From IMG/VR virus record IMGVR_UViG_3300045988_119588: DNA of 45,644 bases; one strand, given 5' to 3'. The DNA is from a virus. Both the position numbers and the translations under genes were made by a program. The stretch's first letter is position 1. Every line of letters starts with the position of its first letter. Shown here piece by piece: positions 9,410 through 27,269 of the stretch. Under the pieces are notes generated by a model. The model saw only the letters and a list, made by a program, of their open reading frames with translations, was not told the DNA's origin and made no database searches.

Positions 9410-9628
9410 ATGTCGCAATATCAAGATGTCAATGCTATATGTCCTTTCTTTTTGTCCGGCGATAAGCAGCGGATCACCTGCGAGGGACTGATTGACAAAA
9501 CCAAGTGCATCAACCGTTTTGATTTTGGCAAAGACCGGGAGCAGTACCGGAGCAGGTACTGTGACAGCAATTATGAGCAGTGCCGGATATACCGGATGCT
9601 GATGGACAAATACAGGGAGCAGAAATGA
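9410..9628 (+). CDS. Cys-rich hypothetical protein (72 aa)
   Basis: Track ORF with AAAGGAGAAGGAGA RBS and several Cys residues (CPFF...CEG...C...YC...C). Confidence 0.55.
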   Translation: MSQYQDVNAICPFFLSGDKQRITCEGLIDKTKCINRFDFGKDREQYRSRYCDSNYEQCRIYRMLMDKYREQK

Positions 9629-10218
9629 ACCAGAACTTTAGAAGAGCAAAGGCAATCGAGGAAAAGAATAAAAAGAGGATCCTAGAAGTCAATCCACATG
9701 TGGATGAGGGCAGCGGAATCTATTTTTTAACCCGGACAGAGGACGGAATCCGGTATGCATACATCGGACAGGCAAAGCACCTGCTGACAAGACTAGCACA
9801 GCACTTATCCGGATACCAGCACATAGATTTGTCAATCAAAAATCATGGACTGTATGCCGCGGATAATATCACAGGCTGGAAAATCGGCTTTCTTCACTAC
9901 CCGGAGGACAAACTGGATGAGATGGAGCAGAAATACATACGGCAGTATGCACAGGCTGGTTACCAGCTTCGGAACAAGACCGCCGGCGGTCAGGGTGATG
10001 GCAAGAAACAGATCGATGAATACCGCCCCGGGAAAGGTTATCATGACGGATTAAAGCAGGGTTACATCAACGCCAGCCGGGAGATCGCACATCTCTTTGA
10101 TCTGCATCTGGAAGTGACCGCCAAGAAGGATCCACCGACGGCGCACCAGAAGAACGCCCTGGAAAAGTTTAAAGCATTTTTGCAGGCATACAAGCAACAG
10201 GAGGATGAGGATGACTAG
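9625..10218 (+). CDS. GIY-YIG nuclease domain protein
   Basis: 197 aa from ATG 9625 (ATGA overlap). Motif: GIYFLTRTEDGIRYAYIGQAKHLLTRLAQH. Confidence 0.75.
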   Translation: MNQNFRRAKAIEEKNKKRILEVNPHVDEGSGIYFLTRTEDGIRYAYIGQAKHLLTRLAQHLSGYQHIDLSIKNHGLYAADNITGWKIGFLHYPEDKLDEMEQKYIRQYAQAGYQLRNKTAGGQGDGKKQIDEYRPGKGYHDGLKQGYINASREIAHLFDLHLEVTAKKDPPTAHQKNALEKFKAFLQAYKQQEDEDD

Positions 10219-12497: not shown

Positions 12498-12761
12498 ATG
12501 CGAGTACATAACCTTAAAATCTTAAATGATTTTGCAGATGCGGTAGTAATGGGAGAAAAGCCCTTTGAGATCAGGAAGAATGACCGTGGATATCAGAAGG
12601 GTGATTATATCAAGTTCCAGGCGATAGATGAAAGCGGCACACCGAATCAACATTGCATCAATGACAAATTATATCTCATTACCTTTGTAATGAATGGATG
12701 GGGCATAAAGAACGGATACGTTGTGTTGGGAATCAAGGAAAGCGAGGGTATCCATGATTGA
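12498..12761 (+). CDS. DUF3850 (ASCH-like, PUA fold) protein
   Basis: 87 aa. HNLKILNDFADAVVMGEKPFEIRKNDRGYQKGDYIKF matches the DUF3850 signature. Confidence 0.7.
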   Translation: MRVHNLKILNDFADAVVMGEKPFEIRKNDRGYQKGDYIKFQAIDESGTPNQHCINDKLYLITFVMNGWGIKNGYVVLGIKESEGIHD

Positions 12762-13137
12762 TGAGGTTTTCAATGTAATGGAATGTTTCCCAAAGAGTTA
12801 TATTACTCAATTTGGAGAACTTATTTTATCAGATAAAGGAAATGTGTATTTTGTAGCGAAAAACTGTAAGACACAGAAAGATATTATATGCAAACTTTTA
12901 GAGTGGTGTTCCAGACCCATTGCAAAGGGAGAACCTTACCGCCAAGAGAAGAGAAATAAAGAATGGAGAGAAAAACTTCTTTCTGGATATAACAAATATC
13001 TTGGCACACAGTTTACACAAGATGATATGTACTGGATATACGATAAACTTGGTAATGCGGTCGACCATGAATTAACGATTAAATTTATAGAAAGCGGATA
13101 TAATTTGAAACTTTTATATCCACAGAAGGGAGAGTAG
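12754..13137 (+). CDS. Hypothetical protein
   Basis: 127 aa from ATG 12754, overlapping the upstream stop. The track ORF starts at 12721. Confidence 0.55.
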   Translation: MIDEVFNVMECFPKSYITQFGELILSDKGNVYFVAKNCKTQKDIICKLLEWCSRPIAKGEPYRQEKRNKEWREKLLSGYNKYLGTQFTQDDMYWIYDKLGNAVDHELTIKFIESGYNLKLLYPQKGE

Positions 13138-13139
13138 CC

Positions 13140-13652
13140 ATGACGGAGAATGAAGCAATAGAAAAATTACATGCATATCTTGAATGTGAAAGCCGTAGAG
13201 CAAAAATTGTAAGTTGTAATGAAAGTTGCGATGATTGCGAATTATGTTATATGCAGGGTACTGGCGCTGAACACATTACAAGTGTGAAAACAGCAATTAA
13301 GGCACTGGAAGAGGTGCAACAGTACCGCCAGATCGGAAAGATTGGCACCTGTAGAAATGCCGTTGAGATTTGCAAAGCTATGATCGAGCGTGGGATTGAC
13401 CAGGACAATATCGCAGAATACATAAAATTTGAGGATAACCTAGTGCAGAGAGGGTACGACCTCAAAAAGCTGATTGAGATGATGGAGGAGCATAAGCAGT
13501 ACCGTCAGATCTGCACGGTGGAGGAATGTTTGCGGAATAAGGATTTCTTGGATTTCCTTGCGGACAAGATGAACCCGAACGATTTTGAAACATATTTGAG
13601 TATGTACAATTCATCTGGCGAGAAACAGGAGGATGAACGATGGGAAAATTGA
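13140..13652 (+). CDS. Hypothetical protein (170 aa)
   Basis: Track ORF with GGGAGAG upstream. Two similar QYRQI-containing half-repeats are seen in the translation. Confidence 0.55.
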   Translation: MTENEAIEKLHAYLECESRRAKIVSCNESCDDCELCYMQGTGAEHITSVKTAIKALEEVQQYRQIGKIGTCRNAVEICKAMIERGIDQDNIAEYIKFEDNLVQRGYDLKKLIEMMEEHKQYRQICTVEECLRNKDFLDFLADKMNPNDFETYLSMYNSSGEKQEDERWEN

Positions 13653-13855
13653 TTTATGCGGATAAATTAAAAGCGGATTTAGAAAAAGCAATTTCAAAGA
13701 ATGAAGATATGGATTGCTTAGACTTTTTACGTGCTGCCTCTGTTATTGATGCGCAGCCGACCGCCTACGACCCGGATAAGGTTGTGGAGCAGTTGGAATC
13801 ACGCACAGCATTCCTTAAAGACTGTACGAAGTATGGAAATAAAACAACAGATTAG
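13640..13855 (+). CDS. Hypothetical protein (71 aa)
   Basis: Track ORF with AGGAGGATGAACG before the ATG. Confidence 0.5.
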   Translation: MGKLIYADKLKADLEKAISKNEDMDCLDFLRAASVIDAQPTAYDPDKVVEQLESRTAFLKDCTKYGNKTTD

Positions 13856-13943
13856 CAGTCAAAATCCTACGACACTATGATGATGTATGAGGTCAAGGAT
13901 TTGGTAGATGATTTGTTGGAGATTGTAAAGGCAGGTGGAGCAG

Positions 13944-14672
13944 ATGGCAATTAAACCGATTTTATTCAATACAGAAATGGTTCGGGCAATTCTGGACGGG
14001 CTGAAGACCTGCACCCGGCGTATATGCAAAGATGCAAATGAGTATACCGTACCAGATATGGAATTTTACAATGCCGACAAGAGAACTTATGCAGTACATA
14101 ACTTTGCAGATAAGAAACATACGGAGCAGTTAAGCATAGCAGAAAGAACTTGTCATATCTGTCCGGGGGATGTTCTGTATATTCGCGAGACATGGACGGA
14201 GGAATGTGGAAAATATTATTATCGTGCGGACTATGACAGCGATTATTTAGACCCATGTGAAACCTTATCTGGTGGCTACCCGGCAAGTTGCAGAAATCAT
14301 CCGGGATGTGATGGATGTATGGCAACTTCAACGAGAATACACTGGCACCCATCAATCCACATGCCGAAAGAAGCAGCTCGTATCTGGCTGAAGGTTACGG
14401 ATGTGAGAGTGGAACGGTTGCAGGAGATTACGCCAAAGGACGCTGAAAACGAAGGTGTTGGAAATCTTTTCTACGAAGATATAGGGTACAGTGAAAAAAA
14501 TTATGTAACAGAGGTGGATCCAGAGTACGGAATCACTAAGGAACAATTTGCTTGGTTATGGGAATCAACCATCAAGAAATCTGACATTGACCGCTACGGC
14601 TGGGATGCTAATCCGTGGGTATGGGTTATCGAATTTGAGCGGTGCGAGAAGCCGGAAGGGAAAAATTGTTGA
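13944..14672 (+). CDS. ASCH domain protein
   Basis: 242 aa from ATG 13944 (AGGTGGAG upstream). MAIKPILFNTEMVRAILDGLKTCTRRI...GDVLYIRETW is the classic ASCH N-terminal pattern. Confidence 0.7.
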   Translation: MAIKPILFNTEMVRAILDGLKTCTRRICKDANEYTVPDMEFYNADKRTYAVHNFADKKHTEQLSIAERTCHICPGDVLYIRETWTEECGKYYYRADYDSDYLDPCETLSGGYPASCRNHPGCDGCMATSTRIHWHPSIHMPKEAARIWLKVTDVRVERLQEITPKDAENEGVGNLFYEDIGYSEKNYVTEVDPEYGITKEQFAWLWESTIKKSDIDRYGWDANPWVWVIEFERCEKPEGKNC

Positions 14673-14781
14673 TTAAAGCCAATAGTTTTGGCAATTTGTT
14701 GCGATAAACCACAACACAAGTAAAAACCACATGTGATATTTTGACACCGCATATGTAAGTAAATCGAAAGGAGTGAGAGGT

Positions 14782-16044
14782 TTGCTGGCCAGCGTGAAAG
14801 AGCTCTTTACTCCGAAGATAATAATGGAATCAGTAAAAGAAAGAATGGAGAGAATCGGGGCATATGCAAAGATTGCTTCATTCATGCAGAAAGAAAAGCA
14901 GGATTATAGTTTTAAAAGAAAATATGCGCAGATTCGCGCGGAAGAGTTTCGCCGGGAGTGTGATAAGAGAGGCCTTAATTGCCATGTATCGGTAGGTGGA
15001 CTGGATAGCATTATCCTTTACATATTTCTGAAAAAGGTATGCAACATTGATGTTCCAGGAGTATCCGCATCATATCTGGAAGACAAGAGTATTCAGAAGG
15101 TGCACAGGGCAATCGGAATTATCAATGTACCACCGTTGAAACGCGAGGACGGAACCTATTGGAGTAAACCGAAGGTGATTCAGGAGTTCGGCTTCCCGGT
15201 GATCTCCAAAGAGGTGGCAGCAAAGATAGAACTGCTACAAAATCCTTCGGAGAAGAATAAGACAGTACGCCACGCCATTATTACCGGTGAGACTGGGGAA
15301 TATGGTGGCTGGCAGAAAGATTCCCGAATGAAACTTAACCACAGATGGCTGAAGCTTTTCGGTGGGTATGAGAACGAAAACGAGGGATGTGATTATCAGA
15401 AGCCTGATTTCTTGGTATCTTCCAAGTGCTGTTATTACCTCAAAGAAAAGAACTGTGATGACTGGGGAAAAGAGCATAACAGTGTACCGTATTTAGGGTT
15501 GATGGCATCAGAGGGCGGCAGACGTGCCAAGAGCCTGCGGATGAATGGGTGCAATTACTTTGGAGCATCCACAATCAGATCAGCGCCGTTTGCTATTTTC
15601 CACCGACAGGATATTCTGTCCCTAGCACTGGAGATGGACGAGCAGTGGCGGAATGGATGGAAAGATGAATTCCATGAACAGCTATTGCGTGAGGGAAAGC
15701 TTACAGAGAATTTTGTGATGCCGGAGTCGTTGATCCCGGAGATATACGGGACCATCGAGAAGAAACCGGACGGAACTCTGTATACCACCAAAGCACAGAG
15801 AACCGGTTGCAGCATGTGTGGATTTGGAATCCACATGGAAAAGAGACCACACAGGTTCGATCTGCTATATGAAAGCAATCCCAAGGAATGGGATTATCTG
15901 ATGTTCCATATGTGTAAGGATTCAGACGGCAATGACTATGGTTGGGCAAAAGTATTGGAATATATTGGTGTTGGATGGGATCCATCAACTATCGGTGGTA
16001 ATTGCAAAGGGCAGATGAGCATAGATGATTTTATGGATTATTAA
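14782..16044 (+). CDS. PAPS-reductase/DndC/IbrA-like PP-loop protein
   Basis: About 420 aa. PP-loop variant HVSVGGLDS, CCYYLKEK motif, C-terminal GCSMCGFG cysteine cluster. Start proposed at TTG 14782 (AAAGGAG 8 nt upstream); the track start is GTG 14773. Confidence 0.8.
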   Translation: MLASVKELFTPKIIMESVKERMERIGAYAKIASFMQKEKQDYSFKRKYAQIRAEEFRRECDKRGLNCHVSVGGLDSIILYIFLKKVCNIDVPGVSASYLEDKSIQKVHRAIGIINVPPLKREDGTYWSKPKVIQEFGFPVISKEVAAKIELLQNPSEKNKTVRHAIITGETGEYGGWQKDSRMKLNHRWLKLFGGYENENEGCDYQKPDFLVSSKCCYYLKEKNCDDWGKEHNSVPYLGLMASEGGRRAKSLRMNGCNYFGASTIRSAPFAIFHRQDILSLALEMDEQWRNGWKDEFHEQLLREGKLTENFVMPESLIPEIYGTIEKKPDGTLYTTKAQRTGCSMCGFGIHMEKRPHRFDLLYESNPKEWDYLMFHMCKDSDGNDYGWAKVLEYIGVGWDPSTIGGNCKGQMSIDDFMDY

Positions 16045-16051
16045 ATAAAAA

Positions 16052-16075
16052 CTGCAATGGACAATTCCATTGCAG
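16052..16075 (-). terminator. Rho-independent terminator for a minus-strand transcript
   Basis: 10-bp perfect stem CTGCAATGGA/TCCATTGCAG with a 4-nt loop. It is followed by UUUUUAUUU only on the minus strand. Confidence 0.55.
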
Positions 16076-16084
16076 AAAGAATGA

Positions 16085-16252
16085 TTATTCTTTTTTAGTC
16101 TTATGCTTGGTAGTAAAAGTTATTGTTATGTGAAAAAGTTTATTTCCACATTTTATTTTCTTCACGTTTGATTTTTTTGAAAATCTTAAAAGAAAATATG
16201 TACACAATGGGATTGATATTACTACCAAACAAAGGGTCAAAAATACAATCAT
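16085..16252 (-). CDS. Possible small single-TM peptide (55 aa) in an antisense AT-rich islet
   Basis: Track ORF 16085-16303 (minus). From internal ATG 16252: MIVFLTLCLVVISIPLCTYFLLRFSKKSNVKKIKC..., a hydrophobic N-terminus with a basic tail. GGAGGA lies 13 nt upstream and a terminator is directly downstream. Confidence 0.3.
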   Translation of the reverse strand: MIVFLTLCLVVISIPLCTYFLLRFSKKSNVKKIKCGNKLFHITITFTTKHKTKKE

Positions 16253-16384
16253 ATTGTTTTTTCGATCCTCCGGCCAGAGTAAGACATGGCCATTATATAA
16301 CATTGTTTATGTTAATACAAGACATATTGGAAAGGAGCCGAACCTCCGGCCGGGGTAACGCTATAGCAGGTTCCTTTTGGGAAA

Positions 16385-18907
16385 GTGACTTACAGAGAGT
16401 TTTTAGAATCAAAAATAGAACTGGCGCAGGACAGCGGATTTGTTGTGGATCCTGCGAAGATCAATAAAGCATTGAAACCACACCAGCGGGACGCTGTGAT
16501 GTGGGCACTGAAAGGCGGCAGACGGGCACTTTTTGAATCTTTCGGATTGGGTAAGACCATCCAGGAGATTGAGTTCTGCCATCTGGCGGCGGAACATTGC
16601 AATGGAAGGGCACTGATTGTGCTGCCACTTGGAGTAAAGCAGGAGTTCACCCGGGATGCGGTGGATATCCTTGGATATGATCGCCCGGAGTATTGCCGGA
16701 CGATGGAAGAAGTGGAACAGAGCAGTAGTCAAATCGTGCTGACGAATTATGAGCGTGTCCGGGATGGAGACATCCGACCGGAATATTTCGCAGCTACGTC
16801 TCTTGATGAAGCCAGTGTTTTACGAAGCTTTGGCAGCAAGACCTATCAGACGTTCCTTGACAAATTTAAACACGTACCGTATAAGCTGGTAGCCACGGCT
16901 ACACCGTCACCGAACAAATACAAGGAGCTGATCCATTATGCTGGATATCTGGAAGTGATGGACACCGGACAGGCACTGACCAGATTTTTTCAAAGGGACA
17001 GCACGAAAGCAAACAACCTGACGCTCTACCCGAATATGGAAGATGAGTTCTGGATGTGGGTAAGCAGCTGGGCATTGTTTATTACAAAACCTTCTGATCT
17101 CAATCCGGAGTATTCCGATGAAGGCTACGATCTGCCGGAACTGGATGTGCGGTGGCATGAACTGCCGGTACATTATGGTGATACGGCGGACAGAGACGGT
17201 CAGATGCAGCTGTTCCAGGAAGCCGCAGAAGGTGTGAAAGAAGCTGCGGCGGTAAAACGGGATAGCATTGGCGCAAGGGTGGCAAAGATGCAGGAGATTG
17301 TAAATGGATCCCCGGATGATCATTTTTTGCTGTGGCATGATTTGGAAAGCGAGCGCGCGGCAATTCTGAAAGCGATTCCTGGGGTGATAGATATCTACGG
17401 ATCTATGGACTACGATCTCCGGGAACAGAGAGTGATTGATTTCTCCAACGGTAAGAGCCGGCTGTTTGCTACCAAGAAATCGTTATCCGGATCCGGATGT
17501 AACTTTCAGCGCTATTGTCACCGGGAGATCTTTCTGGGGATTGATTACGAGTTTAACGATTTCATTCAGGCAATACACCGGTGCTACCGATTCTTGCAGA
17601 CGGATCGTGTGGTAATCGACATTATTTACATGGAGAACGAGCGGCAGATCCGTGAAGCACTGGAAGAAAAATGGAAGAATCATAATCACATGGTTGAAAA
17701 GATGATAGAGATCGTAAAAAAGTATGGTCTGAACTCTGCAAACAAGGCAGAGCGGCTGGAAAGGAAGATGGGTGTGGAAGGAAGCAGAGAAGAAAGAACG
17801 GTAAGGGGAAAACATTACGAAGCGGTATATGGTGACTGCGTGGAAGAAACAAGGGCAATGGAAAGCAACAGTATTGACCTGATACATACGTCTATTCCCT
17901 TCGGCAACCACTACGAATACAGCGCCAATTATAACGACTTCGGGCATAATCAGGATACAGATCGGTTTTTTGAACAGATGGACTTTTTGACACCGGAACT
18001 GCTCCGGGTGCTTCGACCCGGCAGGGTGGCAGCTATCCACGTAAAGGACCGCGTGCTATTCGGTAATGCGACCGGAACCGGAATGCCGACCATAGAGCCG
18101 TTCCATGCGTTATGTATCGCACATTACATGAAACATGGTTTCCAGTACTTCGGCATGATTACCGTTGTAACTGATGTAGTGCGTGAGAATAATCAGACCT
18201 ACCGCCTTGGATGGACAGAACAGTGCAAGGACGGATCCAAGATGGGAGTAGGCTGTCCGGAATATATCCTGCTTTTCCGAAAACTGCCGACAGACAGATC
18301 TACGGCGTATGCGGATGATCCAGTCAAAAAATCGAAAGAGGATTACACCCGCGCTCAGTGGCAGATTGATGCACATGGTTACTGGAGATCATCCGGAGAC
18401 AGGCTGATCAGCAAGGAAGAACTGGAGAGTATATCTGTGGATAATCTGCAGGCTGTGTACCGGGAATTTAGCAGGGATCATGTCTACAGCTACGAGGAAC
18501 ACGTAGAGCTGGCTAAGAAGCTGGATGAAAATGGGAAACTCCCGGCTACCTTCATGGTAGTCGCACCGGGAAGTTGGAACCAGATGGAAGTATGGGATGA
18601 TATCAACCGGATGCGTACCCTTAACACAACACAGAGCCGCAGGCGGGCACAGATGCACGTATGTCCATTGCAGCTGGATATCGTGGAGCGGATTATCAAC
18701 AGATACAGTAACGAGGGTGATACGGTCTATGATCCATTCGGCGGTCTGATGACGGTACCTATGACCGCAGTGAAGATGCATCGGTACGGAAAGGGCTGTG
18801 AGCTGAATCTGGATTACTTCCGGGATGGTGTTGGTTATCTGCAGGCAGCGGAGAATGAAGTGGACGAGCCTACATTGTTTGATTTTATGCCGGAGGTGAT
18901 GGCATGA
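16385..18907 (+). CDS. SF2/SNF2-like helicase fused to a beta-class N6A/N4C DNA methyltransferase
   Basis: 840 aa. Helicase motifs GLGKT (I), SLDEAS (II), ATATPSPN (III), QAIHRCYRFLQ (VI-like). MTase motif IV IHTSIPFGNHYEY (about aa 500) precedes motif I VYDPFGGLMTVP (about aa 780), which is the beta-class order. Confidence 0.85.
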   Translation: MTYREFLESKIELAQDSGFVVDPAKINKALKPHQRDAVMWALKGGRRALFESFGLGKTIQEIEFCHLAAEHCNGRALIVLPLGVKQEFTRDAVDILGYDRPEYCRTMEEVEQSSSQIVLTNYERVRDGDIRPEYFAATSLDEASVLRSFGSKTYQTFLDKFKHVPYKLVATATPSPNKYKELIHYAGYLEVMDTGQALTRFFQRDSTKANNLTLYPNMEDEFWMWVSSWALFITKPSDLNPEYSDEGYDLPELDVRWHELPVHYGDTADRDGQMQLFQEAAEGVKEAAAVKRDSIGARVAKMQEIVNGSPDDHFLLWHDLESERAAILKAIPGVIDIYGSMDYDLREQRVIDFSNGKSRLFATKKSLSGSGCNFQRYCHREIFLGIDYEFNDFIQAIHRCYRFLQTDRVVIDIIYMENERQIREALEEKWKNHNHMVEKMIEIVKKYGLNSANKAERLERKMGVEGSREERTVRGKHYEAVYGDCVEETRAMESNSIDLIHTSIPFGNHYEYSANYNDFGHNQDTDRFFEQMDFLTPELLRVLRPGRVAAIHVKDRVLFGNATGTGMPTIEPFHALCIAHYMKHGFQYFGMITVVTDVVRENNQTYRLGWTEQCKDGSKMGVGCPEYILLFRKLPTDRSTAYADDPVKKSKEDYTRAQWQIDAHGYWRSSGDRLISKEELESISVDNLQAVYREFSRDHVYSYEEHVELAKKLDENGKLPATFMVVAPGSWNQMEVWDDINRMRTLNTTQSRRRAQMHVCPLQLDIVERIINRYSNEGDTVYDPFGGLMTVPMTAVKMHRYGKGCELNLDYFRDGVGYLQAAENEVDEPTLFDFMPEVMA

Positions 18908-19503
18908 AAGAATCATGGAAAGATATACCTGGATATGATGGAAAATATCAGGCTGATATGGAAGGGAATATTCGTAGGGTATATCAATCAGGAAAGACAA
19001 GGCTCATGACTCCGTATCACAAGAAAATGTCAGGAAGCAAGCGTTTGGTAGTAAAAATGACGCAGGATAAGAAAGCAAAGGAAGAGATTCTGGTACAGAT
19101 AATGGCAAAGACATTTCTGGGGAATCCTCTTCCCGGACATGTTCCATACCATAAGAACGGATGTCAGGAGGATAATTACATACAGAATATTGCATACATC
19201 AGCCGGAGAGACCTTGGAAAACTTACCGGGAGAACTGCCAAAAGACAACCTGTTGCCAAGATAGATGTGTCCGGGGAAATCGTAGAAGTATATTCATCCG
19301 CAAGGGAATGTGCCAGAAAAAATTATATGAGTTATCAGACAGTCATAGATAGATGCAATGGCAAATGTAAGAGTGCGTATGCCCCCGATGGCTATGCATA
19401 TGCTTGGGATGACAAGGAAGTGAGCATGAGAAACGCTATAAGAAAAATAGAGCGTGAAAATGGGTATATGCCAAAGGCAAGAAATGTGGATTTTGAGTTT
19501 TAG
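18904..19503 (+). CDS. HNH homing endonuclease (NUMOD4 + HNH_3 + C-terminal DNA-binding motif)
   Basis: 199 aa. WKDIPGYDGKYQADMEGNIRRV (NUMOD4), HKNGCQEDNYIQNI (HNH_3-like), ARECARKNYMSYQTVIDRCNGK. ATGA overlap with the MTase stop. Confidence 0.8.
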   Translation: MKESWKDIPGYDGKYQADMEGNIRRVYQSGKTRLMTPYHKKMSGSKRLVVKMTQDKKAKEEILVQIMAKTFLGNPLPGHVPYHKNGCQEDNYIQNIAYISRRDLGKLTGRTAKRQPVAKIDVSGEIVEVYSSARECARKNYMSYQTVIDRCNGKCKSAYAPDGYAYAWDDKEVSMRNAIRKIERENGYMPKARNVDFEF

Positions 19504-21312: not shown

Positions 21313-21684
21313 GTGATATTGTTGGAAGCAAAGAGAAAAGCATTACCTAAGAGTGTAAGGATAGCGGTATACCAGAAGTGCAACGGTCATTGTGCCTATT
21401 GTGGGTGTGATTTGCAATATAAGGATATGCAAGTAGATCATGTGATCCCGCTGAATGGATGGAGTGAACAGGGAACAGACACGGTAGATAATATGCTTCC
21501 TGCCTGCCGGAGCTGCAATCATTATAAGAGCCGATCCACACTTGAGGGATTCAGGAAGATGGTAGAAGCCATGCCGGACACTCTGATGCGTGACAACGTT
21601 ACATACAAAAATGCAGTAAGGTTCGGACTGGTAATTCCGAACAAGAAGCCTGTTGTTTTCTATTTTGAGAAAAAAATTAACTAA
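21313..21684 (+). CDS. HNH endonuclease
   Basis: About 120 aa. CAYCGCDL...VDHVIPLNGW...DNMLPACRSCNHYK. The true start is likely TTG 21319 or 21322, after GAGGTG. Confidence 0.8.
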   Translation: MILLEAKRKALPKSVRIAVYQKCNGHCAYCGCDLQYKDMQVDHVIPLNGWSEQGTDTVDNMLPACRSCNHYKSRSTLEGFRKMVEAMPDTLMRDNVTYKNAVRFGLVIPNKKPVVFYFEKKIN

Positions 21685-21720: not shown

Positions 21721-22203
21721 TTGGTAGCAGTACCTATTGAATTGAAAGATGCACAGTCCTATATAAACAAATATCACAGGCATCATCAGGCGGCACATAG
21801 AGACAAATTCCGAATAGCAGCAATGCAGGATGATGAAATAGTCGGAGTTGTGCAAGTGGGAAGACCAGTATCAAGAGTCCTGGACGATGGTAAAACGCTC
21901 GAGGTACTAAGATTATGCACAAATGGCACAAAGGATGTATGCAGTTTTCTTTATTCAAGAGCCGCAAGAATTGCAAAAGAAATGGGTTATCGCAGAATCA
22001 TAACATACATTCTTTCTTCGGAATCCGGGACGAGTCTTAAAGCATCAGGATGGGTGCTTGAAGCTGATGGGGTTGGTGGAACTGATTGGAATGTGCCGAG
22101 CAGACCGAGAGAGGTTATCGCAACACAAATGAGTTTGTTCCCGGAAAAACCGAAATACCCAGTCGGAGAAAAGAAGCAGCGTTGGGTTAAAAAACTAAAC
22201 TGA
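21721..22203 (+). CDS. GNAT-fold XF1762/Mom-like protein (possible DNA-modifying acyltransferase)
   Basis: 160 aa. AQSYINKYHRHHQA...IVGVVQVGRPVSRVLDDGKTLEVLRLCTNG...GYRRIITYILSSESGTSLKASGW matches my recollection of this family. TTG start 10 nt after GGAGG. Confidence 0.65.
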   Translation: MVAVPIELKDAQSYINKYHRHHQAAHRDKFRIAAMQDDEIVGVVQVGRPVSRVLDDGKTLEVLRLCTNGTKDVCSFLYSRAARIAKEMGYRRIITYILSSESGTSLKASGWVLEADGVGGTDWNVPSRPREVIATQMSLFPEKPKYPVGEKKQRWVKKLN

Positions 22204-23787: not shown

Positions 23788-24423
23788 ATGAACTATAAGG
23801 AACAAAGGAATTACGAGAATATACAGAGAATGCTGTTTGATGGAACAGGACAATATGACATACCGGGAATAGAAGGGACAGAGTTCGATGCTGCGGAGTT
23901 TATCGGGTTCAATTATGCCCAGAATGCCAAGGAGCCGGAGAAGAAAGCAGTTCATTTCTTCCTGGATGACTACCAGTTCATTCGCTTGTGGACTGATCCT
24001 GACAGATACATAGCAAGGTTACAGAAGTTTCGGTATGTATTGACACCGGACTTTAGCCTATACACGGATTTCCCACGATCACTGCAGATATACAACCACT
24101 ACCGGAAGCATTGGCTGGGGGCATACTGGCAGATGCACGGCATCAGGGTGATACCTACGATCTGCTGGAGCGATAGGGAATCATTTGACTGGTGCTTTGA
24201 TGGAGAGCCTACACATAGCGTGGTAGCGATTTCTTCTGTTGGAACGCAGAATAGCAAGGAAAAGAAACACAGATTCCTGGATGGTTATTTCGAGATGGTG
24301 GATAGGCTGCAGCCAGCACAGATTATTTTCTATGGCAGCGTGCCGGAAGAGTGCCAGGGGAATATTGTGAGAGTGCAGGCATTCACGGACAAATGGAACA
24401 AGGTGGAGGTAGCGCAATGGTGA
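23788..24423 (+). CDS. DUF4417 protein
   Basis: 211 aa. FFLDDYQFIRLWTDPDRYIARLQKFRYVLTPDFSLYTDFPRSLQIYNHYRKHWLGAYWQMHGIRVIPTICWSD matches the DUF4417 pattern as I recall it. Confidence 0.7.
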   Translation: MNYKEQRNYENIQRMLFDGTGQYDIPGIEGTEFDAAEFIGFNYAQNAKEPEKKAVHFFLDDYQFIRLWTDPDRYIARLQKFRYVLTPDFSLYTDFPRSLQIYNHYRKHWLGAYWQMHGIRVIPTICWSDRESFDWCFDGEPTHSVVAISSVGTQNSKEKKHRFLDGYFEMVDRLQPAQIIFYGSVPEECQGNIVRVQAFTDKWNKVEVAQW

Positions 24424-25299: not shown

Positions 25300-25560
25300 A
25301 TGGCGAACCTGAGAGGAAAGATGAAGAAATTACAGACTGCGCTGGTAAAGCGCGGAATGATCATAAAGATAAACCAGCGTCAGTTCTACTCCGAGGATCA
25401 GAACCGGATGATCACCTCGTACAGCATCGTTACCCCGGTGGAGTGCTACTACCCGGGCAAGGAAGAGTGGAAGACTAAAGAATATGAGATTCTGAAGACA
25501 TGCTCAATGGTAGATGTGATATTCTGCCTGTTGGATATCTATAAGGCGGTGAGTGAATGA
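25300..25560 (+). CDS. Hypothetical protein (86 aa)
   Basis: Track ORF with AGGAAGGAGATGATCAG upstream and an ATGA overlap with the terminase start. Confidence 0.55.
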   Translation: MANLRGKMKKLQTALVKRGMIIKINQRQFYSEDQNRMITSYSIVTPVECYYPGKEEWKTKEYEILKTCSMVDVIFCLLDIYKAVSE

Positions 25561-27269
25561 AGAATGAGCTCACGATGAAACAGAAAGCATTTGCAGATGA
25601 GTATGTAAAGAATGGTGGGAATGCAACACAGGCAGCAATAAGCGCAGGATATTCTGCAAAAACAGCATATTCGCAGGGACAAAGGTTGCTGAAAAAAGTT
25701 GATGTTGCGGATTATATAGGATCTCAGATGGAGCGCATCGAGAAGGAGCAGCACCGGGATATCATGTCTCTGGCAGACATCCAGGAGCGCCGGAGTAAGA
25801 TTGCAAAGGGAGAGGTCGTGGATGGACTGGGATTTGCCCCGGACTTTTCTGACCAGCTGAAAGCAATGGACGGACTGGAAAAAGCATTGGCGATTGCTGA
25901 GAAGCAGCGCATAGAGCGAGAGGAGAAGGAGAAACGCGAAAAGGCACCGCTGTGGACGATTCCGATCACTGACGCTACGTCTGATTTTGTAGAGATATAC
26001 CGGACAGTGCATGAAGCCTTCGCAGGAGAGATAGATATTCATGAGATTATATCCAAAGGCGGCCGCGGATCTGTCAAGTCGAACTTCTGGGGCAATCTGG
26101 CATACGAAACTATCCGGCAGGATCCTCATGCCCACGTGGTATATACCAGAAGATACAAGATAGATCTGCGTGGGTCTGTTTATAACCAGTTTATGAAGAC
26201 GGTCATCCGGTACAACGATCTGGACAACTGGGATTTCAAGCAGTCTCCGCTGTGCGCAGTGTATAAGCCTACGGGTCAGATGGTGATGTTCGTGGGTGCG
26301 GATAAGCCCATATCCCTAAAATCTTTCAATGTTCCGTTTGGTTATGTAAAGCTGCTGATCCATGAAGAGTGTGACGAGATGGCAGGTGTGGAGCAGATGG
26401 ACAACATCGAGGATACCTTCCTCCGATCTGATACTCCGGCACTGGATATTAAAATATTCAACCCACCGAAGAGCAAGAATAATTTCATGAATCAGTATGT
26501 GGAAGAATGCAGGAATAAGCCGCAGACACGGATCTGTCACAGCTATTATTATAATGTGCCTGAGAAGTGGCTGGGAAAGCGATTCTTCGAGCGTGCGGAG
26601 TGGTTCAGAGTACATAAGCCGCGATACTATGATAACAACTACCTTGGTAAGGTAACAGGTACCGGAGGCGGTATCTTCGACAATGTGGAAGAACGGACCA
26701 TAACGGATGCAGAAATTGAGAATATGCCGTTCTTCTATCACGGCCTTGACTTCGGATTTGAGCATCCGCAGACCTTTGAAAAAGCATACTATGATGCTGA
26801 TGCAGATATCCTTTACTGCGTGGGAGAGGTCTTTGCGAAGAGATGCAAGAACAGCACGTTTGCCCGGAAGATTAAAGGCTATATCACAGAGGAAATCATA
26901 TGTGATTCTGCACGTCCGGATGCAATAGCTGAGATGCAGGACTGGGGCTTCAATGCAATCGGAGCAAAGAAGCGCTGGGGATCCGGCAAGGGAAGGGATT
27001 ATTGCTGGGAGTGGTTGCAGCAGACCACGAAGATTGTGGTTGATCCTGTGCGTTGCCCTCACCTGGCACATGAGCTGACCACACTGGAACATGAGCAGCT
27101 GGCAGACGGCAGCTTTTCGGATGCTTACCCTACTCTGGACGAAGACTGTGTCATGGCTCTGATATATGGATTGAACCGAGTGATTATGGAGAGCAGACGT
27201 AACAATGGACTGTATGATGACGAAATAGATGAAGTAGATGAGGAGGATGATGGAGAGTATGAAGATTAA
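25557..27269 (+). CDS. Terminase: small-subunit (Terminase_2-like) domain fused in frame to a PBSX/Terminase_3-type large subunit
   Basis: 570 aa. The N-terminus LTMKQKAFADEYVKNGGNATQAAISAGYSAKTAYSQGQRLLKKVDVADYI is the TerS signature. Walker A KGGRGSVKS lies at about aa 178, where TerL of this family normally has it at about aa 30-40. There is no stop or internal start between the two domains. Confidence 0.85.
   Translation: MKNELTMKQKAFADEYVKNGGNATQAAISAGYSAKTAYSQGQRLLKKVDVADYIGSQMERIEKEQHRDIMSLADIQERRSKIAKGEVVDGLGFAPDFSDQLKAMDGLEKALAIAEKQRIEREEKEKREKAPLWTIPITDATSDFVEIYRTVHEAFAGEIDIHEIISKGGRGSVKSNFWGNLAYETIRQDPHAHVVYTRRYKIDLRGSVYNQFMKTVIRYNDLDNWDFKQSPLCAVYKPTGQMVMFVGADKPISLKSFNVPFGYVKLLIHEECDEMAGVEQMDNIEDTFLRSDTPALDIKIFNPPKSKNNFMNQYVEECRNKPQTRICHSYYYNVPEKWLGKRFFERAEWFRVHKPRYYDNNYLGKVTGTGGGIFDNVEERTITDAEIENMPFFYHGLDFGFEHPQTFEKAYYDADADILYCVGEVFAKRCKNSTFARKIKGYITEEIICDSARPDAIAEMQDWGFNAIGAKKRWGSGKGRDYCWEWLQQTTKIVVDPVRCPHLAHELTTLEHEQLADGSFSDAYPTLDEDCVMALIYGLNRVIMESRRNNGLYDDEIDEVDEEDDGEYED

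Follow-up and report, generated by a model that had tools for sequence, protein, structure and literature searches.

DNA methylases coupled to SWI2/SNF2 ATPases are found in phages, plasmids and conjugative elements, with DarB of phage P1 as the archetype, and it has been proposed that such dyads combine ATP-driven tracking with protective methylation and serve as antirestriction modules (Iyer et al. 2017). DndC, SspD and BrxP, which act on DNA in conflict systems, possess a phosphoadenosine phosphosulfate (PAPS) reductase domain and write phosphorothioate together with a nucleoside triphosphatase (NTPase) partner. A PAPS-reductase domain and a Dam methylase are joined in a single protein, the product of gene p0018, in a Vibrio podovirus (Piel et al. 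2022; preprint 10.1101/2021.05.05.442762). When p0018 is transferred together with its neighbour p0019, two genes specific to Dnd-resistant Vibrio phages, the phage infects a Dnd-carrying host (preprint 10.1101/2021.05.05.442762). PAPS reductases are also found in anti-defence operons under the control of anti-CRISPR-associated (Aca) regulators (2026 survey), and many virome papers label the phage PAPS reductase as the metabolic gene cysH. These systems are compared here with positions 12,498 to 19,503 of a 45,644-nucleotide viral stretch (IMG/VR record IMGVR_UViG_3300045988_119588), the whole of which is called the window. This region harbors, on the + strand, a gene for a PP-loop protein of the PAPS-reductase superfamily, a gene fusing a helicase to a DNA methyltransferase, two genes for PUA-like proteins and a homing endonuclease gene.

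The observed gene identities, motif content, distribution and linkage statistics point to a mosaic of independently exchanged anti-restriction and DNA-modification cassettes in a phage of gut Lachnospiraceae, and not to one multi-gene machine; a probability of about 0.6 is given to this reading, jointly with the gene roles proposed below. The fusion, the homing endonuclease and the PUA-like proteins are of ordinary, known kinds. An initial annotation of this DNA had described an island in which a DndC/IbrA-like PP-loop enzyme and a translocase-methyltransferase might together install a modification beyond methylation. All the genes and motifs that it named (DUF3850, ASCH-like, PP-loop, fusion and HNH) are found in the sequence, and the gene identities agree with a region rich in DNA-modification and anti-restriction functions. 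Furthermore, p0018/p0019 provide an experimental precedent for anti-defence by a PAPS-reductase-like gene that neighbours a methyltransferase. The proposed pair itself did not hold up, as described next.

The PP-loop gene probably starts at the ATG at 14824 and not at 14782 as first delimited, since its homologues are 404-406 residues long; so read, it spans 14824-16044 (+) and encodes 406 residues. The 840-residue fusion follows at 16385-18907 (+). Linkage was assessed in 80 IMG/VR loci with PP-loop genes at least 86% identical to that of the window, 64 of which have enough downstream sequence. Among these 64 close relatives, a large C5 methylase is present in 33, the fusion in 23 and no recognised methyltransferase in 14; a few loci carry an N6_N4 or Dam-type (D12) methyltransferase or a split helicase and methyltransferase, which brings the number of methyltransferase types to at least five. 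In 50/64, a recognised methyltransferase is found in the first 4 kb downstream of the PP-loop gene, against 0/50 at 4-8 kb downstream, 0/56 at 0-4 kb upstream and 0/48 at 4-8 kb upstream, control intervals whose bias is weighed below. In a diverse set of 80 species-representative genomes (PP-loop protein identity 58-98%), a methyltransferase is present within 4 kb downstream in 16/60 loci, compared with 2/46 to 6/56 in the control intervals, and the fusion is adjacent to the PP-loop gene in 2/60. Beyond the two sets, the downstream gene of metagenomic relatives at 80% and 69% identity is a C5 methylase or a 333-residue gene of unknown kind, and not the fusion. Thus, the association of the PP-loop gene with this particular fusion is weak to absent, and the reproducible pattern is that of a PP-loop gene flanking a slot where methyltransferases of several classes swap.

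The architecture of the boundary is in keeping with such a slot. Eight nucleotides past the PP-loop stop codon stands a perfect hairpin with a 10-bp stem (16052-16075), which opens a 340-bp, AT-rich, non-coding spacer (16045-16384). In relatives, variable small open reading frames (ORFs) of 60-96 residues occupy the position of the spacer, and the downstream cassettes differ from the hairpin onward. Hairpin and spacer may be seen, from their sequence, as a terminator-like module boundary, and the PP-loop gene would form the upstream edge of a slot exchanging C5, N4/N6, Dam-type and helicase-fused methyltransferases. A promoter scan was uninformative, with 22 sites found and 24 expected.

The same evidence bears on the idea that the PP-loop enzyme and the translocase-methyltransferase are one dedicated system installing a complex, sulfur-containing or other non-methyl, modification on the phage DNA, with the helicase serving the PP-loop enzyme as the ATPases DndD, SspC or BrxC serve DndC, SspD or BrxP. 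The two genes are adjacent and on the same strand, and an NTPase partner is needed by all known PAPS-domain DNA modifiers; the hairpin and spacer nevertheless separate them. PP-loop family genes, counted within 10 kb and in either gene order, are present in 24/59 fusion-anchored viral loci, with both orders represented, against 14/64 control loci for which YopX, an unrelated neighbour gene, served as the anchor (p = 0.03). The opposite count, that of the fusion near a PP-loop anchor, gives 13/46 viral loci (p = 0.15) and 8/48 genome loci (p = 1.0) against a baseline of 10/64, so that co-occurrence in diverse genomes equals the baseline, and near-identical PP-loop genes neighbour the C5 methylase more often than the fusion. 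The distribution in deposited phages also speaks against a pair. The genera of the 316 phages holding a fusion homologue do not overlap with the 26 phage records holding a PP-loop homologue, mycobacteriophages and phages of Arthrobacter, Flavobacterium and Pseudomonas have the fusion but no PP-loop gene with it (none stood beside it in the Pseudomonas, Mycobacterium and Flavobacterium phage loci inspected), and on the PP-loop side a nearby fusion gene is missing from the closest cultured relatives, the Clostridium phages Saumur (66% identity) and Villandry (Mu-like, 55%).

On the other side stand the PAPS-Dam fusion of the Vibrio phage and Rhizobium phage RR1-A, in which the helicase/methylase, a 697-residue C5 methylase and a divergent PAPS reductase are found together within 7 kb (NC_021560.1 37594-44880), just upstream of primase genes, the start of the PAPS-reductase-domain gene overlapping the C5 methylase stop. 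The presence of the three genes in an alphaproteobacterial phage indicates that a loose clustering of these gene kinds crosses phyla. The RR1-A PAPS reductase is at best a distant relative of the PP-loop family (hhalign probability 35%). Weighed together, these observations make one dedicated two-gene system very unlikely.

The PP-loop protein belongs to a phage-specific clade of the PAPS-reductase superfamily. Its match in PHROG is phrog_424 "PAPS reductase" (E 1.8e-16, E being the expect value), and neither Pfam (E ≤ 0.01), NCBIfam (E ≤ 0.1), PADLOC nor a PDB sequence search returned a direct match; a profile search of the family against the PDB gave marginal PP-loop matches at most. The family is large: the homologues form 5277 clusters when grouped at 90% identity, and at 50% identity there are 1183 representatives. 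The motif and family counts that follow rest on an alignment of 32 relatives. PF01507 (PAPS_reduct) is matched by 14/32, with a best E of 4.6e-29. Among NCBIfam models, those of CysH or of adenosine phosphosulfate (APS) reductase match 9/32 and that of DndC (TIGR03183) matches one at 1.3e-4, the best-scoring models for the relatives being CysH, APS reductase and CysD. QueC models match 2/32 weakly.

The motifs named in the initial annotation (VGGLDS, CCYYLK and GCSMCGFG) are all in place. VGGLDS, at residue 57 (14992-15009, +), is the PP-loop; its GG-x-DS core is kept in 29 to 31 of the 31 sequences covering those columns, and it takes the form SGGxDS in 9/32 relatives. The Cys-Cys pair of CCYYLK (C202 and C203; 15427-15432, +) is invariant in 32/32; K207 is also invariant. 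A CxxC (C329 and C332; 15808-15819, +), contained in RTGCSMCGFG with GCSMCGFG starting at residue 328, is kept in 28/32; the four exceptions (P0127, P0128, P0130 and P0132) depart from the family consensus across the C-terminal region. GGxDS and CC...CxxC are strictly conserved across relatives at 58-98% identity. When a distant relative (P0249) is aligned with the M. tuberculosis APS reductase (chain 7lhr), the CC...CxxC of that enzyme is matched by the CC pair (202-203) and the CxxC (329, 332) of the family. In APS reductases, these residues bind a [4Fe-4S] cluster.

This alignment brings in the reading that is usual for such genes, namely a true auxiliary metabolic cysH that reduces PAPS or APS to sulfite and boosts host sulfur assimilation during infection or lysogeny. 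The assimilatory APS reductases (CysH of M. tuberculosis and P. aeruginosa) are indeed the best curated family for the relatives, the CC...CxxC motif is theirs and aligns residue for residue, CysH is the best PDB fold match, and phage PAPS reductases are classed in the literature as auxiliary metabolic genes. In contrast, no conserved Cys follows the CxxC in the 32 relatives, and the alignment to 7lhr stops at the CxxC region; the clade thus lacks the catalytic nucleophile of sulfonucleotide reductases, which is the cysteine of a C-terminal ECGLH. The PP-loop differs as well. Canonical CysH has a degenerate PP-loop, and the stretch matching GGxDS reads SSSFGIQAAV in the CysH chains of E. coli and V. 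vulnificus, whereas it is intact here. The window protein scores under every curated CysH threshold in NCBIfam, and it has a helical region at its N-terminus and a long helical insert that set it apart from the APS reductases. Its gene, moreover, lies among phage early genes beside methyltransferases, no other sulfur-assimilation gene is present in the window, and a PAPS-domain gene acts as an anti-Dnd factor in the Vibrio phage. Since it lacks the C-terminal catalytic cysteine and carries a GGxDS PP-loop with CC...CxxC, the PP-loop protein is probably not a sulfate-assimilation enzyme, and the cysH explanation is considered highly improbable.

The AlphaFold2 model of the PP-loop protein is of good quality (pLDDT, the predicted local distance difference test score, of 89) and displays the extra N-terminal helical region and the long helical insert. 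Its best Foldseek match in the PDB is CysH 6vpu (E 0.025, probability 0.99), with a TM-score of 0.31 by query length and 0.51 by target length. Searches of the PDB and BFVD with Foldseek yielded weak PAPS-reductase-like matches, and no DndC-like structure surfaced among them.

With DndC, SspD and BrxP, the PP-loop protein shares the superfamily, an ATP-pyrophosphatase-type PP-loop and cysteines suited to an iron-sulfur (Fe-S) cluster. It differs from them in having no TIGR03183 match and no DUF4007. Among the window genes between 4.6 and 27 kb, which were scanned with Pfam, PHROG and PADLOC, there is no DndD, DndE, SspB, SspC, BrxC, ParB or cysteine desulfurase gene, and a desulfurase of the host is possible. 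DUF3440, the domain of IbrA, is matched neither by the window protein nor among the families listed for the 32 relatives, and a ParB-like IbrB partner is missing from the scanned genes. The "DndC/IbrA-type" label is hence not borne out, the relatives scoring better on CysH and APS-reductase models. A QueC-type 7-deazaguanine pathway was also considered and rejected, as FolE, QueD, QueE and DpdA are missing from the window and the QueC matches are those mentioned above.

By its motifs, the PP-loop clade would thus unite the signature of an ATP pyrophosphatase with cysteines for an Fe-S cluster, a chemistry known from DndC, TtuA and TtcA, and the protein is probably a [4Fe-4S] ATP-pyrophosphatase-type enzyme. 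It is more likely an ATP- and Fe-S-dependent adenylating enzyme or a sulfurtransferase of the DndC/TtuA chemical type than a reductase. Its target may be a nucleic acid or the host's sulfur-based (phosphorothioate) defence, and it would work on its own or with host factors. The motif evidence, which speaks against sulfate assimilation, is compatible both with sulfur transfer to a nucleic acid and with antagonism of phosphorothioate-based immunity.

A more specific proposal is that of a self-sufficient nucleic-acid sulfurtransferase, which would write a phosphorothioate or a thiolated base on the phage DNA without DndD/E-type partners, draw on a host cysteine desulfurase and cooperate with whichever methyltransferase fills the adjacent slot, resulting in a combined epigenetic camouflage. 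In this precise form, it is quite unlikely. The protein could instead leave the phage DNA unmodified and act as an inhibitor or decoy against host phosphorothioate immunity (Dnd, Ssp or bacteriophage exclusion (BREX) type 4), for example by sequestering the persulfide donor or by competing with DndC, SspD or BrxP. The Vibrio gene pair with the PAPS-Dam fusion is anti-Dnd by a mechanism not demonstrated, PAPS-domain genes belong to Aca-controlled operons, and the phage PP-loop gene comes without a DndD/E-like partner. Targets also exist: a few percent of gut genomes, those of Bacillota among them, have phosphorothioation clusters (dnd, ssp and brx type 4). With 5277 clusters, the PP-loop family is, however, far more widespread than phosphorothioate systems in gut genomes, and the strict conservation of catalytic-looking motifs (GGxDS, K207, CC...CxxC) suggests an active enzyme rather than a passive decoy. 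A pure inhibitor or decoy is accordingly rated as unlikely. The anti-Dnd protein JSS1_004, taken up as a possible PAPS-reductase precedent, was rejected, as it is a kinase.

Several observations weigh against the mosaic reading and the gene roles attached to it. The first PP-loop residue is V, and not S, in the window protein and in 21/32 relatives; the Fe-S cluster and the ATP pyrophosphatase activity of the clade are deduced from motifs only; and the similarity of the model to any solved protein is weak, as the Foldseek E value shows. By sequence, assimilatory CysH/APS reductases are nearer to the family than DndC is, which keeps the metabolic reading alive. As to linkage, the reference methyltransferases of the close-relative test were drawn from downstream ORFs only, and its control intervals are thereby biased; the sampled loci are phylogenetically related, and the counts are not independent events. 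Finally, PP-loop genes are modestly enriched near the fusion in the viral set, and from this enrichment and the RR1-A cluster some functional cooperation of the PP-loop protein with methyltransferases is possible.

The fusion is more easily placed. It matches phrog_16 over its full length (residues 10-835, E 5e-121), and Pfam recognizes an SNF2-related domain (SNF2-rel_dom, E 7e-6) and N6_N4_Mtase (PF01555, E 1.6e-16), corresponding to a superfamily 2 (SF2) SNF2-like helicase at residues 33-403 and a beta-class N4/N6 DNA amino-methyltransferase at residues 497-813. The motifs GLGKT, LDEAS, TATPSPN, SIPF and DPFGGLMT are all present, and SIPF precedes DPFGG, which is the beta-class order (IV before I), as the initial annotation had it. 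TSIPF is encoded at 17888-17902 and DPFGG at 18731-18745. In an alignment of six proteins, FGLGK, DEA and ATATP are invariant in the helicase half, and TSIPF and DPFGG in the methyltransferase half; both halves therefore look catalytically competent.

Homologues of the fusion at 47-54% identity were detected by tblastn in 316 deposited phage genomes, 306 of them spanning at least 80% of the protein. The records comprise 147 Mycobacterium, 85 Flavobacterium, 27 Arthrobacter and 23 Pseudomonas phages, together with phages of Gordonia, Rhizobium and Synechococcus, so that the family extends over phages of Actinobacteria, Proteobacteria, Bacteroidetes and cyanobacteria. These homologues are annotated as "DNA helicase/methylase", "DNA methylase N-4" or "SNF2 helicase". 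Mycobacterium phage Gorge gp70, Arthrobacter phage Auxilium gp73 and RHXG_00056 of RR1-A are collinear with the window protein over their full length, at 47-54% identity and with the same order of SNF2-like helicase and beta-class methyltransferase; they differ in host range only, the window phage being one of Lachnospiraceae, and by the HNH gene inserted behind the fusion here. In some relatives, the two halves are separate neighbouring genes. By its sequence, the fusion is a member of a well-populated and already annotated phage family (PHROG 16) and not an unnamed architecture, and the coupling that the initial annotation could not name is an established theme, both under the label "DNA helicase/methylase" and in the work of Iyer et al. 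(2017). The literature was also searched for helicase/methylase proteins of characterised function, and only generic discussion of dyads was retrieved.

A described analogue is the DarB dyad of phage P1 and related polyvalent proteins, in which an amino-methyltransferase and a SWI2/SNF2-type ATPase are likewise found in a mobile element and a processive protective methylation has been proposed. In DarB, the methyltransferase is N-terminal to the helicase, an LPD36 domain is present, and the protein is much larger and packaged in the virion. The window fusion has its helicase first, followed by a PF01555 beta-class methyltransferase. With this reversed domain order, no LPD36 and a stand-alone protein of 840 residues, it is not a member of the DarB family, and it may work like the DarB dyad without belonging to it. 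The p0018 protein of Vibrio phage 44E38.1, compared by description, offers another likeness, in that a variable anti-defence region of the phage encodes a PAPS-reductase-superfamily domain in physical linkage with a DNA methyltransferase; there, the domain is fused to a Dam-type methyltransferase in a podovirus of a Gram-negative host, and in the window it is a separate gene beside a helicase::N4/N6 methyltransferase.

Functionally, the fusion would be an orphan DNA methyltransferase with an SNF2-type translocase as its motor. It would track along the phage DNA and methylate N4 of cytosine or N6 of adenine, and host restriction enzymes would then not cut, following the logic proposed for DarB-type helicase-methylase dyads. 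In alignment, its SIPF corresponds to TSPPY of the Thermus TTHA0409-type methylase, and it may be likened to the SPPF/SPPY type. SPPF is found in M.PvuII, an N4-methylcytosine (m4C) enzyme.

Directly behind the fusion, a free-standing homing endonuclease of the NUMOD4 + HNH_3 type is encoded at 18904-19503 (+), with phrog_959 (E 2e-18) and PADLOC HEase (E 5e-13) as matches. Its NUMOD4 scores 27.5 bits, above the cut-off, and its HNH_3 20.5 bits, under the cut-off of 24.8. The coupling of its start to the fusion stop, already pointed out in the initial annotation, is an ATGA at 18904-18907, where the ATG of the one overlaps the TGA of the other. The HNH gene stands behind 4 of 23 fusion genes that are otherwise 87-98% identical and is for that reason taken as a mobile homing endonuclease, not as a component of the system; it would have landed behind the fusion. 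Interruptions have also been noticed in the family elsewhere. In Mycobacterium phages Job42 (NC_021538.1 45089-48574), Clifton and Dante, the helicase/methylase homologues are broken by ~1 kb and give a tblastn match in two pieces, some genes of this type being mis-annotated as ribonucleotide reductase. This suggests an intein or a homing element in the same gene family that has an HNH neighbour here.

Upstream of the PP-loop gene, the two PUA-like proteins are unequally supported. The smaller one (87 residues; 12498-12761, +) is a clear DUF3850 protein with a small PUA/ASCH-like domain, as initially claimed (PF12961, E 1.3e-26, 93 bits for a cut-off of 22.9; phrog_986, E 7.6e-21), with a weak ASCH match (E 0.0075). 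DUF3850 was detected in none of the close-relative loci and in 6/80 diverse genome loci. The larger one (242 residues; 13944-14672, +) begins at the ATG at 13944 (MAIKPILF...), as in relatives, and matches phrog_874 (E 5.6e-60); its assignment as an ASCH protein is less firm, as Pfam ASCH (PF04266) scores 17.1 bits, under the cut-off of 21.2. It has more than 8000 clusters of homologues, among which a 77%-identical protein is named "ASCH domain protein", and the annotation in Roseburia phage Jekyll lends weaker support. Its AlphaFold2 model is poor (pLDDT 53, shallow alignment), and the top Foldseek PDB entries, YqfB and EF3133, are ASCH proteins at non-significant E values of 0.24-0.9.

Across loci L012-L091, from phages in which the neighbouring PP-loop gene shows 86% identity or more, the aligned ASCH-like gene displays four near-invariant scaffold blocks with three hypervariable, indel-rich segments between them, a variation that looks like allele shuffling of surface or specificity loops. 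An ASCH homologue is present within 2 kb upstream of the PP-loop gene in 36/69 close loci and in 2/63 diverse loci. Nothing links either PUA-like protein functionally to the enzymes; they are frequent but facultative neighbours.

A mark beyond methylation has its best candidate in the window elsewhere, in a gene absent from the initial list. A Mom-like protein of 160 residues is encoded at 21721-22203 (+), 2.2 kb past the region delimited above, and matches a DNA-modification family (phrog_1384, E 3.5e-36). Homologues at 40-50% identity, annotated "Mom-like DNA modification protein" or "acetyltransferase", are found in Burkholderia phi1026b, Microbacterium Min1, Pectobacterium ZF40 and M. abscessus prophages. 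Mom of phage Mu, which has R111 and S124 as catalytic residues, makes 6-NcmdA (N6-carbamoylmethyl-deoxyadenosine) using Gly-tRNA. A PDB sequence search with the window protein gave no Mom match and thus no direct alignment to Mu Mom. By its family, this gene is nonetheless the window's most concrete candidate for a non-methyl mark.

The genomic setting is that of a temperate siphophage. From ~4.6 kb onward, all convincing genes of the window are on the + strand and their order is typical of such phages: DUF1351 and a recombination exonuclease, a NinB-like protein, a DnaD-like loader and a run of small genes, then the PP-loop/fusion region, the HNH gene, the Mom-like gene, a DUF4417 gene and the terminase from 25.5 kb. 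The region under study is therefore the accessory end of the early (recombination and replication) region, and its listed genes have thousands of homologues, which makes them real genes and not chance ORFs. PP-loop genes 98% and 88% identical to that of the window are present in an uncultured Lachnospiraceae genome and in Roseburia porci, respectively, so that the source element is taken to be a Lachnospiraceae phage or prophage.

Further nuclease-type genes are scattered around it, namely a GIY-YIG endonuclease (9580-10218, +), a second HNH endonuclease upstream of the packaging genes (21313-21684, +) and the DUF4417 protein (23788-24423, +), which matches phrog_940 "nuclease". A single ORF of 570 residues (25557-27269, +) matches Terminase_2, a small-subunit family, over residues 5-117 and Terminase_3, a large-subunit family, over residues 164-364, and this terminase may be fused or oddly organised.

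"PAPS reductase / cysH" is among the genes most often reported as auxiliary metabolic in gut, rumen, bee and marine viromes, and ecological conclusions rest on this label. A nucleic-acid or anti-defence role is argued for the PP-loop clade because it has no reductase catalytic cysteine, possesses a PP-loop with Fe-S cysteines and lies beside a methyltransferase-swapping hotspot. If the enzymatic activities and the anti-defence role that we infer are correct, the widespread cysH annotation would have to be corrected, and a new chemistry of counter-defence could come to light. Should the sulfurtransferase reading prove true, the abundant "cysH auxiliary metabolic gene" of viromes would really be a DNA-modification or anti-defence gene.

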